Assembly: GCA_951804945.1 (NCBI GenBank)
Contig: OX638153.1
Location: 50,964,001 to 51,028,000, forward strand
Direction of reading: 5' to 3'
Source of the DNA: Podarcis cretensis
Taxonomy: Eukaryota
DNA: 64,000 bases
Under the pieces are notes generated by a model. It did not search any database. It saw nothing but the letters and a program-made list of their open reading frames with translations, and had not been told where the DNA came from. Shown one piece after another: positions 17,526-47,939 of the stretch. A program made the translations under genes and the position numbers. How positions within the stretch are numbered: the first letter of the stretch is position 1; each line of letters starts with the position of its first letter.

Positions 17526-17965
17526 TGAAGGACCACACATATCTGCTATTTGGGTCCCTGAAGCACAGATTCACACAAAGCGGCAAAACGCTCTTGCAGG
17601 TTATTAACAGGATTTTTATTTGAAGTGCATATGCAAAACAAAGGTACAGGGCGATCAGTACGCAACCTGTACACAGTAGTCAGGGTGTGCCCCTTTATAT
17701 AGATTTGCAAAATAGAATACCACCTGATCTCTTGTAAGTCACCTGATTTCTGGGAAATCGAAACTTATAATAAGTTCCTATTACCACATAAGGTCTTGGT
17801 CTTCTCTCCCTCCTTCCTGCAACCTCCCTCATCCTGGTATTACAAGAAATCCTTGTTCCTTATCTCTATCTGCCCAAGCTAGACATTCCGAGAGGCCCAT
17901 TTGCAATGTAACATTTAAGCATGTCCTTCAATAATAGAACAATTATATTGTAATATGCTCCTTCA
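17526..17965 (-). repeat. 3' LTR of provirus (440 bp)
   Basis: TATATAAA (17694-17701) and AATAAA (17615-17620) on the minus strand. It is preceded by the purine-biased AGTGAAATTGGGGAC, a weak polypurine tract. Confidence 0.93.
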
Positions 17966-20307
17966 GTCCCCAATTTCACTGTTTGGACAGATTTCGCTCA
18001 AAGAGCAGAATCTCGTTCTCCTGTGGAAGACTTCCAAAATACAAGTAGTCATCCCGTCAAATTAAATGTGGCACAGAGACCACCATGTTAGGTGAGGACA
18101 TAATCCAGGCCCAATTTTCACAATTGCTGTGCTATCAAATAAGAACAGGTTTAAACGGATACGCATAAAATAACACATATCGTCTTTCGTTACTTGTGGC
18201 ATTCAAACACTTTGTGGACGTGGTCTATGCTTTACATTGAGCTGGAAGGTCCACCAATGACTGAAAAAAAATGCTGTTCGTTTTGTTTCCTTTCCTTTTC
18301 CCGTTCCCAGGTGTCAGAGTTAGTTCTCAGGTCTCACCCTCCAATATGCACAGCAACATATCCTGGTGAATCCCCGTAGGGCTTTCATCTTGACCACGTG
18401 CTTTGTCCCTGGCAGGTTTGGGCACGTCGTGAGGGAAGTGTCCTTGCCTTTTGCCTCTCTATGGGACCGCATCATTATTATTAGTGCTGGTCTCGCACTC
18501 TAGGAAAGTTGCTCAGTTGTCCTAAGGGGACCAGAGAAAAGTCAGTGCACCTGGGATACATGCCCAATCAGAACTGAGACCAATTTGAATTTATCTTGCC
18601 CCACGGTTTTCAATTTTCCCAACCAATCTGTTAAACAAAACCATTTGAAAGGGCACATGTCCAAATAAATCAATTCAACTCTATAAGGGATCATTTCAGC
18701 TAAAGCAAAGCATATACACCTTTATTTATCTGGTGGTATTATGGATCCAAAAACATGTCCTTGGTAAAACGAGGTTGTAGCACATTTAAAAAAGAACTGG
18801 GGTTATAAAGTGAGTAAATCTAATGAGTAGATTACACAATAGCCTGAAATATTGGAAAGCATGAGAATCCTCTTAAACTGGTGTTAGCAATAAAATACTA
18901 TACTTTAAATTACACATAGACATTCCTTTCCTTTTCGTGGAAACAATACAATGTCAAACATATTTCAACATTCCAACATAAATAACATGTAATACAGAGC
19001 AAACTAATTAAACATCAGTTGCATATTTTGAGGCAATTATGAAGATTCTAGGTCTTCTTTCCAATCCTGGACCACAGTCTTGAGGTTCAAAAGTGACAAA
19101 AATGTCCTTATAATACAACTCCTCCCCCCTTTCGTTAGCACCACCCCATCTCAGTCATTATCCTTTGAAAGGAAAGAGTTCATGTGTCTTTGTTGCTGCT
19201 GCTGCTGTAGGTATTCTATAGTTTTGTAGTCAGGAGGAGTTGGGCCTAGGGTTTTCCATCACTGTCTGCAACAACATCTATAGAAGTGATATGCTGTAAG
19301 GAGGGGGGGGGCAGGGACTTAAAAGAGAGTTAGAAAGGAAGAAGGGGTAAAAAGCCCCTCCCCAAAAATGTCCTTAAGTTATCTTAGCTGCAGATAATAA
19401 AATTGTAGCATGTTAAGCATTGTATTCATTTCAACATTATCATTACATTTCCAGATAATTATTATAATTATCTGCTAAGGTTGCTTGTTTTCCTTCATTG
19501 AGTTACTCCACATATACAGACAAAAATAAAGAAATAGCTTAAAAATTACGTTTTCAGATGAAAACGGACTTGACAGAAAGACACCATATTTTGGAAAGAA
19601 CTATTATTATTAAAAAAAATACAAAGAATACACACAAAAAATATTATTAAAGCCACACATATGGACATATGACACACGTATGGACAACATGTAGCATATA
19701 AAACATACATAAATTACCAATCTTCTGGTAATTGTAAGAAGAAGTTTAGCTCGCATCCTGTTCGTTTCTTTAAGCGAAATAGAACGGCCCCATATAAATT
19801 GTTTTACGACCCTTGTCTCCATAAAAAGGGTCTTTTGACCCTCCATGCTTCACCAAGCACTAGCCTGTTAATTAAACTGTCAGGGATGTCCCTCTGACTC
19901 CCTCTTTTCCCTTGCAAGGTGAATAGCCACAGACCTATCCTTAATCCCTAAGACGGATTCTTAAAATTCGTCCTTTTCTTTTTCCATTTCCAGAGGAGAT
20001 CGTTCGGGGCGACTTATTCTGTGCGCACGTACTAAATCCTCATCCTCACGAGGAATTGATCAGATTCCTCTGCCCCCCCCCCCAATCCCTTGGGACCATC
20101 CATTACTCACCATCCTACGGTCGTATCGTTTCTCCCTAGCCGCCTTCTCCTGGTTTGCTGCTCTCCATGGCCCGGTAGACTGGGCAGAACACCCCCCTAC
20201 TTCTTCAGCCAAAAATGGCTGGTGCGCGCTTTGAAGGCGGGGGAGGGTCCCCCCACCCTCCTCAGACCAGACAGGGAAGAGCAGACCTGCCTTTGTGTCA
20301 ATTCTAG

Positions 20308-20465
20308 CAGTGGCGTAGCGTGGGTTGTCAGCACCCGGGGCAAGCCAGGTAATTTGCGCCCCCTAACCCTGGATTTGCGCCCCCTAACCCTATCCCTAAC
20401 CCTAACCCCCAGATGTTGCGCCCGGTGCGGCCGGCCCCCCCTGCACCCCCCACGCTACGCCACTG
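20308..20465. mobile_element. hAT (Tip100-like) MITE with internal telomere-like repeats, nested in the ERV leader
   Basis: Perfect 17-bp TIR CAGTGGCGTAGCGTGGG/CCCACGCTACGCCACTG and a perfect 8-bp TSD AATTCTAG (20300-07, 20466-73). Confidence 0.92.
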
Positions 20466-20484
20466 AATTCTAGTGCTCATTATT

Positions 20485-20502
20485 ATCCCGGGCGAGCCCC
20501 CA
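20485..20502 (-). promoter_or_regulatory. Primer-binding site, tRNA-Pro
   Basis: The minus strand reads TGGGGGCTCGCCCGGGAT, a 17/18 match to the MLV-type Pro PBS TGGGGGCTCGTCCGGGAT, 5 nt from the LTR end. Confidence 0.92.
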
Positions 20503-20507
20503 AGAAA

Positions 20508-20946
20508 TGAAGGACCACACATATCTGCTATTTGGGTCCCTGAAGCACAGATTCACACAAAGCGGCAAAACGCTCTTGCAGGTTATTAACAGGATTTTTA
20601 TTTGAAGTGCATATGCAAAACAAAGGTACAGGGCGATCAGTACGCAACCTGTACACAGTAGTCAGGGTGCCCCCTTTATATAGATTTGCAAAATAGAATA
20701 CCACCTGATCTCTTGTAAGTCACTTGATTTCTGGGAAATCGAAACTTATAATAAGTTCCTATTACCATATAAGGTCTTGGTCTTCTCTCCCTCCTTCCTG
20801 CAACCTCCCTCATCCTGGTATTACAAGAAATCCTTGTTCCTTATCTCTATCTGCCCAAGCTAGACATTCCGAGAGGCCCATTTGCAATGTAACATTTAAG
20901 CAAGTCCTTCAATAATAGAACAATTATATTGTAATATGCTCCTTCA
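20508..20946 (-). repeat. 5' LTR of provirus (439 bp)
   Basis: Near-identical to 17526-17965 and adjacent to the PBS. On the minus strand TATATAAA precedes AATAAA. Confidence 0.93.
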
Positions 20947-32368: not shown

Positions 32369-32504
32369 CAGTGTTTCCCAGCCTTGGGTCTCCAGCTGTT
32401 TTTGGACTACAACTCCCATCATCCCTTGCTAGCAAGACCAATGGTCAGGGATGATGGGAATTGTAGTCCAACAGCAGCTGGAGACCCAAGGTTGGGAAAC
32501 ACTG
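32369..32504. mobile_element. Fold-back (palindromic) hAT-derived MITE
   Basis: Near-perfect ~58-bp arms CAGTGTTTCCCA...ACTACAACTCCCATCATCCCT and their reverse complement, with GTATAGTG on both flanks. Confidence 0.85.
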
Positions 32505-45097: not shown

Positions 45098-47652
45098 GTT
45101 TAGAGTGTAAGAACTGTGCCTTATATAGTTTATAATATATCTGATAATATATCTGTTTGGGATTCTTGTGTGCTACTGGGCCTACTTCAAAGTATAAGAA
45201 ATGGTTTATACAGCCCTCAATGCATCAGGACCCAAATATACAGTATGTATGAGTGCCTTCTCCATTACCAGCCAACTAAGTTTAAGACTGGCAAGGGAGA
45301 GCTCTACCCACAGTCCCAGTAGTGGACCTACATTTTTGGGAGCCTGAAGCTTGAACCGCCATGTAGGCCCCTTCACAACCAGCAACTAGGTCTGTTATCT
45401 TCTTCACCAGGGTTGTTCCATGACAGATCAACACACTTTTACAAACTACTGAGCTACTGACTCACAAACCTGGAATTGTTGAAATACAGTATATACATTT
45501 TAAAAAATCAATCTGAGTCATGTGATTTAAACTGGGTCTAACAGACACAACATTTTAAAGCAATGCGGACTAAAGTCGCTTATGGGGTCCGTCTGGGATT
45601 AGGGGCTCTGAAGCTTAAGATTCATTAGTTTCATTTTTGTAGAATAACCATGGAGTATTTAATCCTCAGTAACTACATTTGAAACAGTGCTTTAAGGTGT
45701 TGTAAATATCTATTTTTAAGATTATGGTTTTACTGTTTATGCAGTTATGCTTATATGTTTGTTGTACATTGCCCTGAGCCCCTTTAGAGGAAAGTCAATT
45801 GATAAATATTTTAAATAAATTGAACTTCAAGTCTTGTGAGATACTTTATCAGGTATGTGGTTTGTTCTGCTATGCTTCAGATACAGAAACAGATGTATCT
45901 TATATCAAAAAAATACTTCAATACTACAGTAAAGATGCATTATAACCCTTCTTTTTCAGATTAACTTTACAGCATTTACAGAATCCCAAACCTATTTTTC
46001 ATTTATAGAACAATAATGACATCAATAACACGTTCAAAGTCATTCAACACAGAGATAAAACAAAAACTTGCAAGTTTATTTTTATACTTTACCAGAAGTC
46101 CTCAAGTTTTCTTCATTAAAACACTCTTCTGCTAATGGAGAATTATACCTTGAACATTCAGCTAACTATTCCCAACGCTAACTTGGAAAAAGCATTACAA
46201 TATTCTACAAGCAAGCTTTAGGTAATGTTCCCTCTGTCAGTTTCACTTTCCTCATGCAAATATTGTGTGTGACAAAGAATAAATCCTTTAATACTAAACA
46301 ACCAAGAAAATCCCCCTATTATAGTATCATTACTGGAGGTACTGATTTTTGTAGACATTAGCTAAGGGAGACATTATCATCTGGAAATTTTACTTGTCTT
46401 ATATTATCAGAGACTTAGACTAAGGTATAAAACAGAATGCAGTTGACACTCAGATAAAATTAACTGTTTTGAAGGAATCACATTCTAATCCCTAAATGCA
46501 GACTTTCTGAGTGGAACTACATAGTAAGAAAAACTTATTTTGTGGATTGTTACAAGACAAACAAAAACTTGGTCATCAAAATATGAACTTGCTTAAGTAA
46601 CCACTTTCACTCTTACAAATACTCCATTAAAGTTGATGCCCCCCCCATTTTCTGCAGAATGTTTCTTTCTCAAGCAAGCAAGTAGCTCACCACGTACATC
46701 AATAAAAATGAGCATGAGCAAAAAACTGTACTCCTGTAAAATATGGATTCTAGCCAGCTCTTATCAGATGAGCTGTTTTAATGTCTGGTTTTCCCAGCTG
46801 CCCAGAAATTGTGTGTGTAAATACACACATGTTACCTTATTTTAACACCTAGCTGTTAAAATTATCTTAAATTATAAATCTCAATTAAGTGCACAAAGGT
46901 AAATATTGATTCCCACTTTTACACACTGCACAAAAAGAAAGCATGCAGAAGCAAATGAACCTGCACAATGTAACTGCTCAGATCAGTAACTGCTCAGATC
47001 AGTAGCAGAAGTGGGATGAAATCCTTGCATTACTAACCTTTACTCCATAACTCTAGCCACAAAACTGCACAGGTTCCTCTTTTTAAGCATGTTTCATGTA
47101 AATGAACAAGCTACTACAACTTATATCCACAGCACACAGTCCTTAGTTTGCACCACACATCCAAACCACTATTTTCAATCCTCTTTTGCTGTCTATGACT
47201 CACTCATTCAGCTTTAACAGACTAGGTTTCTTAAATTACTGGGGATTACTATAACCTTCAGAGAAAGCTGGCTAGTTTGATAATGAGTGAAACGCATTTA
47301 AACAGGGTTAGGTGTAGATTAATATATTACACCTTTGTCAGAGAACTTGGATGAACAGTATTGGGGGAGTGGAACATTAAATGGAATAAAAACCTTTGCT
47401 TTGAAGGAAAGACCTTAAGAATTAACTTTTTCTCTCTTTTTTCAGGGAGATAGAATTATCGCTCTCATGATCATATCAAAGGGAAAGTCCCTATCAGATT
47501 CCTCCTTGTCTTCTCATTAAAAGCAAGCACACGATGATCTAGGGATTAGTTTTTGTACTTCTGCAAAGACACTTTGGGTATAAAACATAACAGCAAGAAA
47601 AGGAAAAAGGGGGTGGGGGGAAAGAGTATGATCAGAAGATGGTGAAACTTAC

Positions 47653-47939
47653 TTGAACCTGCCTTGGCAGTGCTGGCACTGGTCTCCTACCCAGCCTTGG
47701 TCACAGATGCAGGTAGAATTCAGACACCGGCCCGAGAAGCAGGAGGTCCTCTCGCAAGGCTTGGACTGGGAGACTTGGGCATACAGCACCAGGTACAGTA
47801 ATCCATAGAAAAGCAGCCAATTGTGCATATCCAGAAGGGTGGCGAAGCAGCAGGAGGAGCAAGAAAAAGGTCTCCAGGCACCAGAGATCACAGGAGGGCC
47901 TCCTATCCTGCGCAGGACTTTACCCAAAGGATCCAGCAT
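47653..47939 (-). CDS. ATRNL1: Attractin-like protein 1, first coding exon (signal-peptide region plus first EGF-like domain)
   Basis: Translation ...WLLFYGLLYLVLYAQVSQSKPCERTSCFSGRCLNSTCICDQGWVGDQCQHCQGRFK matches the ATRNL1 N-terminus as I recall it (LYAQVSQSKPCERTGSCFSGRCVNSTCLCDPGWVGDQCQHCQGRFK). The exon ends TTCAA|GTAAGT (phase 2 donor at 47652). The ATG at 47939 has A at -3; another in-frame ATG lies at 47957. Confidence 0.93.

Follow-up and report, generated by a model that had tools for sequence, protein, structure and literature searches.

The 158-bp element described here, located in a 64,000-nucleotide stretch of contig OX638153.1 of Podarcis cretensis (the window), is a member of a young family of non-autonomous hAT elements (MITEs) with at least 3,522 copies in the genome, counted as exact matches of the 37-bp left end only (the reversed control gave 0). 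Our preferred reading, to which we assign a probability of roughly 0.8, is that the MITE consists of the ends of a larger hAT parent, that it would have entered, by a cut-and-paste jump, the leader of a non-coding provirus integrated earlier, that its telomere-like tract arose by short duplications, and that the parent reached the lizard by recent horizontal transfer. The positions of the features are summarized in Table 1.

Table 1 Features of the provirus, the MITE and the host gene (window positions).
Feature	Position	Strand	Remark
Provirus 3' LTR, 440 bp	17526..17965	-	
Provirus internal region	17966..20299	-	no long ORF, no Pfam match above cut-off
8-bp TSD of MITE, left copy	20300..20307	+	present once at the paralogue's empty site
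Non-autonomous hAT element (MITE), 158 bp	20308..20465	.	~69 bp (left) and ~60 bp (right) shared with the ends of the 6,834-bp parent
Left TIR, 17 bp	20308..20324	+	identical in parent
Subterminal unit of 21/22 bp, two copies	20352..20391	+	single in parent; other MITE copies have up to 8-10
Telomere-like tract, five G-runs	20380..20410	-	tandem duplication of 12 bp, one mismatch; G-quadruplex predicted
Right TIR, 17 bp	20449..20465	-	identical in parent
8-bp TSD of MITE, right copy	20466..20473	+	
tRNA-Pro primer-binding site of provirus	20485..20502	-	
Provirus 5' LTR, 439 bp	20508..20946	-	
First coding exon of ATRNL1	47650..47939	-	provirus and MITE lie in the intron after it; provirus in the sense of the gene

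In a preliminary description of this DNA, the element had been called a hAT MITE with a perfect 17-bp TIR, a perfect 8-bp TSD and intact CpGs, inserted just past the primer-binding site (PBS) of an ERV, and carrying a duplicated interior unit and five G-tracts on the minus strand. These points were confirmed: the element contains 11 CpGs (observed/expected, 0.67), lies 19 bp behind the PBS, carries the interior duplication as a 21-bp unit, and has a parent in which identical TIRs enclose a hAT transposase. The TIR length lies within the 10-25 bp range of hAT elements. As is expected of a MITE, the element is short, non-coding, homogeneous and of high copy number, and it keeps the ends of an autonomous partner. 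The target 8-mer did not occur in the window, on either strand, beyond the two TSD copies. The fold of the MITE had a z of -3.3, with 0/200 shuffles as good.

Subsequently, other copies of the family were examined. The 30 closest copies showed 0-3 differences over the 158 bases, and each was found at its own target site, 28 of them with a perfect TSD. A further sample comprised the first 30 left-end matches on contig C1, which is not a random draw. All of these copies were at different sites, with an 8-bp TSD that was perfect in 24 and near-perfect (1-2 mismatches) in 6. Their lengths ranged from 126 to 554 bp, mostly near 147 bp, and the right 55 bp showed 2.4% divergence from the window copy in 29 of the 30. 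The length variation came mainly from a 22-bp unit present in 1 to 10 copies; hence a 22-bp minisatellite is the main variable unit of the family. Two members (L076 and L077) have this unit expanded to 8-10 copies, showing that the family seeds minisatellites. The copy closest to that of the window (L002:1380-1900 / L093:1949-2554; G000:C11, ~9.397 Mb) has both diagnostic bases in common with it and lies nested within the left end of another, longer family member. In another copy (L117), a ~390-bp repeat of the D2 family of the window, which we take to be a Sauria-type SINE, was inserted within the CCCTA tract.

The parent was identified as a 6,834-bp element (L149:2651-9484) with its own 8-bp TSD. 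Its transposase, encoded on the minus strand, matched Dimer_Tnp_hAT (PF05699) with 48.1 bits (cut-off, 21.4; E, 1e-12), and the DUF4371 and zinc-finger matches on its broken pieces were below the cut-off. The gene is broken by frameshifts and by two nested insertions matching other repeats in the genome. Only one of the three matches to the transposase DNA in this assembly, that of the parent itself, was full; no intact transposase able to move the MITE of the window was found in the assembly, its single parent copy being broken. The MITE would be mobilised in trans by a transposase of the parent type. Ds of maize is likewise a non-autonomous hAT element that was formed by internal deletion.

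Other loci were considered as the parent and rejected. Among the 20 DUF4371 matches, L149 included, 12 of which were extended to 9.9 kb, these TIRs surrounded a transposase only in L149. A young 4.4-kb family (L119-L124) lacked the TIRs. This family, to which L139-L144 also belong, is a second young hAT family of ~4.4 kb whose copies are 97-99% identical; it has 730-aa open frames in two copies and, judging from these sequences, is possibly still active. We also observed two 3.77-kb DUF4371 elements (L135/L136, also L147/L148) on different contigs, which are 99.9% identical and have a 658-aa open frame each.

The set of domains, namely DUF4371, the dimerisation domain and a TTF-type finger, presumably fits the Tip group; the quick tree described below contained no Tip100, Ac or Buster reference. 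Buster elements prefer TSDs with a central TA, and the absence of a central TA from the TSDs of the MITEs argues against Buster membership. Membership of the parent in the Tip (Tip100/BuT2) group is plausible. According to the report on BuT2 MITEs of the Tip group (PMC3942097), those elements and the present family have in common a short TIR (given as 10-25 bp), an 8-bp TSD, the ends of an autonomous element and a high copy number. They differ in that 24 copies are given there versus at least 3,522 here, and in that amplification of the junction has here produced a short telomere-like tract alongside a 22-bp minisatellite.

We then compared the parent transposase with known proteins. A 280-aa piece was 96% identical to proteins of Pleurodeles waltl and 93% identical to that of Pelobates cultripes, and the only named squamate among its 112 protein matches showed 53%. 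The two top protein clusters had 28 members; the named ones among the 22 of 28 that were listed came from Pleurodeles, Pelobates and Pelodytes ibericus, plus two unassigned 50-aa entries. Patchiness across intermediate taxa was judged at the protein level, from one search of candidates of 491-2,000 residues. When three pieces of the transposase were compared with the amphibian proteins, the identity was 93.3-96.3% for 12/12 proteins, which is far above the expectation for the divergence of the hosts, and the lizard element is dead. In a quick tree of 29 rows, made without bootstrap, the lizard copy and six amphibian copies formed one clade (SH-aLRT 100; end branches 0.007-0.034), and other frog relatives fell outside it. 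The host gene ATRNL1 was compared with that of a snake, giving 87% in exon 1 and mostly 82-100% in later exons. Because the lizard-amphibian identity of the transposase is about the same as that of this conserved host gene between lizard and snake, a recent transfer between squamates and amphibians is likely. On these protein comparisons we hold a recent horizontal transfer common to the lizard, the newt and two frogs to be probable, and the parent would have entered the lizard lineage by this route. Pleurodeles, Pelobates and Pelodytes are Iberian or south-west European; the shared range of the amphibians is suggestive but may reflect which genomes are sequenced.

The likeness to the amphibian proteins might instead be due to vertical descent of a domesticated gene, or to contamination, and the database name of the matches, 'zinc finger MYM-type protein 1-like', would agree with a host gene. 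However, the lizard copy is a broken element that retains TIRs and a TSD; it is located on a 94-Mb contig, and its nested repeats recur elsewhere in this genome. Moreover, each amphibian has several dispersed, near-identical copies, and no close relative was found among the named amniote proteins in the 112 matches. We consider both explanations very unlikely and retain the horizontal transfer. The next relatives of the parent were unnamed transposases from sequencing-run assemblies (P0003-P0007). P0003-P0005 showed 69-88% over the three pieces and P0006-P0007 showed 70-73% on one piece; their hosts could point to a vector or to further transfers.

The provirus that carries the MITE extends from 17526 to 20946 on the minus strand (3,421 bp) and is flanked by a 4-bp TSD. 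Over 440 positions, 4 substitutions and 1 indel separate its two LTRs, and a tRNA-Pro(AGG) gene of the genome agrees at its 3' end with a 16-base stretch of the PBS in 15/16 positions. We presume that it is of the gamma-like class. No coding remnant gave a match above the Pfam cut-off in the 8 of 9 minus-strand frames of at least 45 aa that were scanned. Other full-length matches of the LTR in the genome were mostly solo, with a perfect 4-bp TSD in 10/12. In its TG...CA LTRs, 4-bp TSD, PBS-Pro and many solo LTRs, the provirus resembles non-autonomous tRNA-Pro-primed endogenous retroviral elements, whereas it has no recognisable gag, pol or env frame and received a later DNA-transposon insertion. 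The best protein matches of the first coding exon of ATRNL1 were from snakes (87% and 80%), followed by turtles and birds, which identifies the host as a squamate.

To date the insertion relative to the provirus, sites corresponding to the MITE were compared. The 400 bp of the leader beside the MITE had two matches in the genome, the second of which (L032) was 86% identical; there the PBS was present and the target 8-mer occurred in single copy, i.e., the site was empty. Four of the 22 listed runs were compared at the locus itself. In run X1 (organism A), contigs spanned the host-provirus junctions on both sides. One contig of 886 nt, which had 6 substitutions and a single-copy depth like that of the flanks, skipped exactly 166 bases, corresponding to the MITE and one TSD; this orthologous empty site comes from assembled sequence, and its join carries the mark 'between: not known'. 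In runs X15, X16 and X18 (organism G), contigs ran from the leader into the MITE. Joins skipping 166 bases were also seen in these three runs and were rejected as a polymorphism, since the contigs, where listed, resembled the paralogue in having 12 substitutions and 6 gaps over ~194 bases. Because the site is empty in organism A and filled in organism G, the provirus is older than the A-G split and the MITE is later, unless the MITE was lost from A by clean excision, which may also explain the empty site. The comparison of empty sites comprises one paralogue and one orthologue, and it suggests that the MITE likely landed in an already integrated provirus.

The preliminary description had raised the possibility that the MITE hitch-hikes on retroviral replication, on condition that other proviruses carry it too. 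In that case, a source provirus would have received the MITE in its leader and passed it on by copying. Its position between the PBS and the internal region would indeed place it in any genomic RNA, and a precedent for MITEs inside viral genomes, in large DNA viruses, is given in PMC6004678. The proposal did not survive the comparison: the leader matched only twice in the genome, and both the paralogue (1/1) and the same provirus in organism A (1/1) were empty. Furthermore, provirus sequence was found within 1.5 kb of 0/29 of the closest other MITE loci, no MITE was found within 1.5 kb of 5 other tRNA-Pro-primed LTR elements, and none lay between the LTRs of the 8 more distant relatives that had both LTRs captured (20 fetched). 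Two of these 20 stretches contained other MITE variants; one of these lay outside the LTR pair, and the other may lie inside or outside it. At a density of 1 copy per 428 kb, the chance of a MITE in a 3.3-kb provirus is ~0.8%, and there are at least 128 candidate relatives. Copying of the MITE with the provirus is thus extremely improbable, and its position within the provirus is most likely incidental.

The tract itself had been labelled (TTAGGG)n. Hexamers are present, but the label was overstated: the tract has three regular hexamers and one variant, all in phase, with two units as its longest perfect run. The four-unit tract had 409 exact matches in the genome. In the 30 sampled copies, the longest perfect CCCTAA run was one unit in 7 and two units in 23. 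At least three perfect units were found at the right junction in 24 copies (three in 21, four in 3, and never more than four), a count of exact matches that misses copies with a changed junction. The motif is accordingly, as the preliminary description had thought possible, a trait of the family and not a product of local slippage in this copy only. The further suggestion that the family disperses telomeric seeds is weak: perfect runs do not exceed two units in 30/30 sampled copies, and the 22-bp minisatellite varies most.

In the parent, CCCTAA occurs once in the left ~70 bp and a second time at base 117, outside the retained part, and does not occur at the right end. Two copies with one hexamer are simple deletion derivatives. 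The tract of the window corresponds to a 12-bp unit of the 147-bp MITE form repeated in tandem, with one mismatch, at the deletion junction; therefore, the odd hexamer appears to be the seam of a duplication. Of the first 100 of the 409 listed matches, 27 had the exact 12-bp tandem, which L079 has too, and 73 had the one-letter variant of the window. A 12-bp tandem duplication at a deletion junction points to slippage rather than telomerase. The tract likely arose by copying slips or short duplications at this junction, as judged from the sequences of the copies. The order of events would be one hexamer, duplication of the 22-bp unit, addition of 6 bp, the 12-bp duplication and a point change, possibly through a series of template slips during gap repair.

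Alternatively, telomerase may have added the tract as genuine telomeric DNA during the healing of a break in the parent, and the MITE may disperse functional TRF1/TRF2-binding sites. The G-rich strand does read TTAGGG straight after the G-run at the right-end junction, the four-unit tract is present in as many as 409 copies, and telomerase-made interstitial repeats at repaired breaks are known in vertebrates, as stated in PMC8537989. The +6-bp step is compatible with both routes, telomerase and slippage. Telomerase would add perfect repeats. However, the perfect runs stay at or below four in 24/24 of the longer copies as they stay at or below two in the sample, one hexamer was already in the left end of the parent, and the variant unit is explained by a 12-bp duplication of existing sequence. 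YTAGGGTTR is the TRF-type half-site motif, and each sampled copy has at most one (one in 23/30, none in 7/30). The window copy has one, and by its sequence a single half-site is a poor site for a dimeric TRF. We regard addition by telomerase as unlikely, and prefer short duplications as the origin of the tract. The earlier screen by the authors of PMC8537989 for short interstitial telomeres required at least four repeats. The tract of the window falls short of this threshold, with four units in phase including the variant; four perfect units occur in 3/24 of the longer copies. The sequences described there likewise contain in-phase TTAGGG hexamers at internal sites, whereas the present ones are spread by a transposon, have at most two perfect tandem units in most copies and are explainable by duplication of a pre-existing subterminal motif.

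The minus strand at the MITE is the sense strand of both the provirus and the ATRNL1 pre-mRNA. ViennaRNA predicted a three-tier quadruplex in the minus-strand RNA (-90.1 versus -81.3 kcal/mol without it), and a minus-strand G-quadruplex in the tract is thus predicted by modelling. The canonical short-loop pattern was present in 4/30 sampled copies. G4Hunter peaks were 1.88 for the telomere-like core, 2.12 for the TIR-proximal G-runs, 2.28 for the provirus leader without the MITE and 2.04 for the leader of the paralogue. The idea that G-quadruplex potential is special to the core was rejected, as the neighbouring G-runs and the provirus leader without the MITE score above it. Since the neighbouring G-runs score higher, the tract appears to add little that is special.

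A bolder combination is that a hAT element was recently passed between a land lizard, two pelobatoid frogs and a newt, maybe in a shared range, and gave rise to thousands of MITEs in the lizard; in one branch of these, the subterminal motif would have become a telomere mimic, scattering ~400 G-quadruplex-forming, shelterin-binding cassettes, introns included. We consider this combination quite unlikely, and a functional telomere mimic as such is unlikely too. As a locus, a young MITE within a dead provirus is nothing unusual, and hAT transfer among vertebrates is of an already known kind. According to PMC11008031, hAT-6_XT from turtles, fishes and one frog likewise comprises near-identical hAT transposases in distant vertebrates, and SPIN in squamates, as cited there, is also a horizontally transferred vertebrate hAT. 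In contrast to hAT-6_XT, the hosts here are a squamate, Pleurodeles, Pelobates and Pelodytes, with no named fish among the close matches; this comparison concerns the hosts, and the two may be the same family. In one survey, 93.7% of 975 vertebrate transfers involved ray-finned fishes (PMC7070016); a tetrapod-to-tetrapod case would therefore give a handle on routes and vectors. We did not meet this hAT family or the squamate-amphibian transfer in literature listings; the repeat databases (Repbase and Dfam) and the supplements of PMC7070016 and PMC11008031 lay outside the scope, and the family may already have a name. The amphibian transposases are apparently intact, which makes them candidates for an active transposase. 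The copies offer a traceable series in which a telomere-like tract, predicted to be G4-capable, and a minisatellite emerge from the transposon's own end, and this series matters for any reading of short TTAGGG matches in lizard genomes as footprints of telomerase. With and without the tract, several hundred MITE copies provide a natural control set for TRF binding.

Several further repeats were noted. In the paralogous provirus (L032 / L094; G000:C12, ~55.14 Mb), the leader is cut at ~270 bp by LINE-like sequence, with LTR fragments beyond. Eight related LTR elements (L185 and L187-L193) have direct repeats that are 98.6-100% identical and ~5-6 kb apart, and they show ~70% identity to the 3' part of the provirus of the window. 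A tRNA-Pro PBS was also found in L194, L197, L198, L200 and L201, beside an LTR-like end unrelated to the LTR of the window. Finally, positions 32369-32504 of the window form a 136-bp near-perfect hairpin with 58-nt arms, which is probably another small DNA-transposon MITE.
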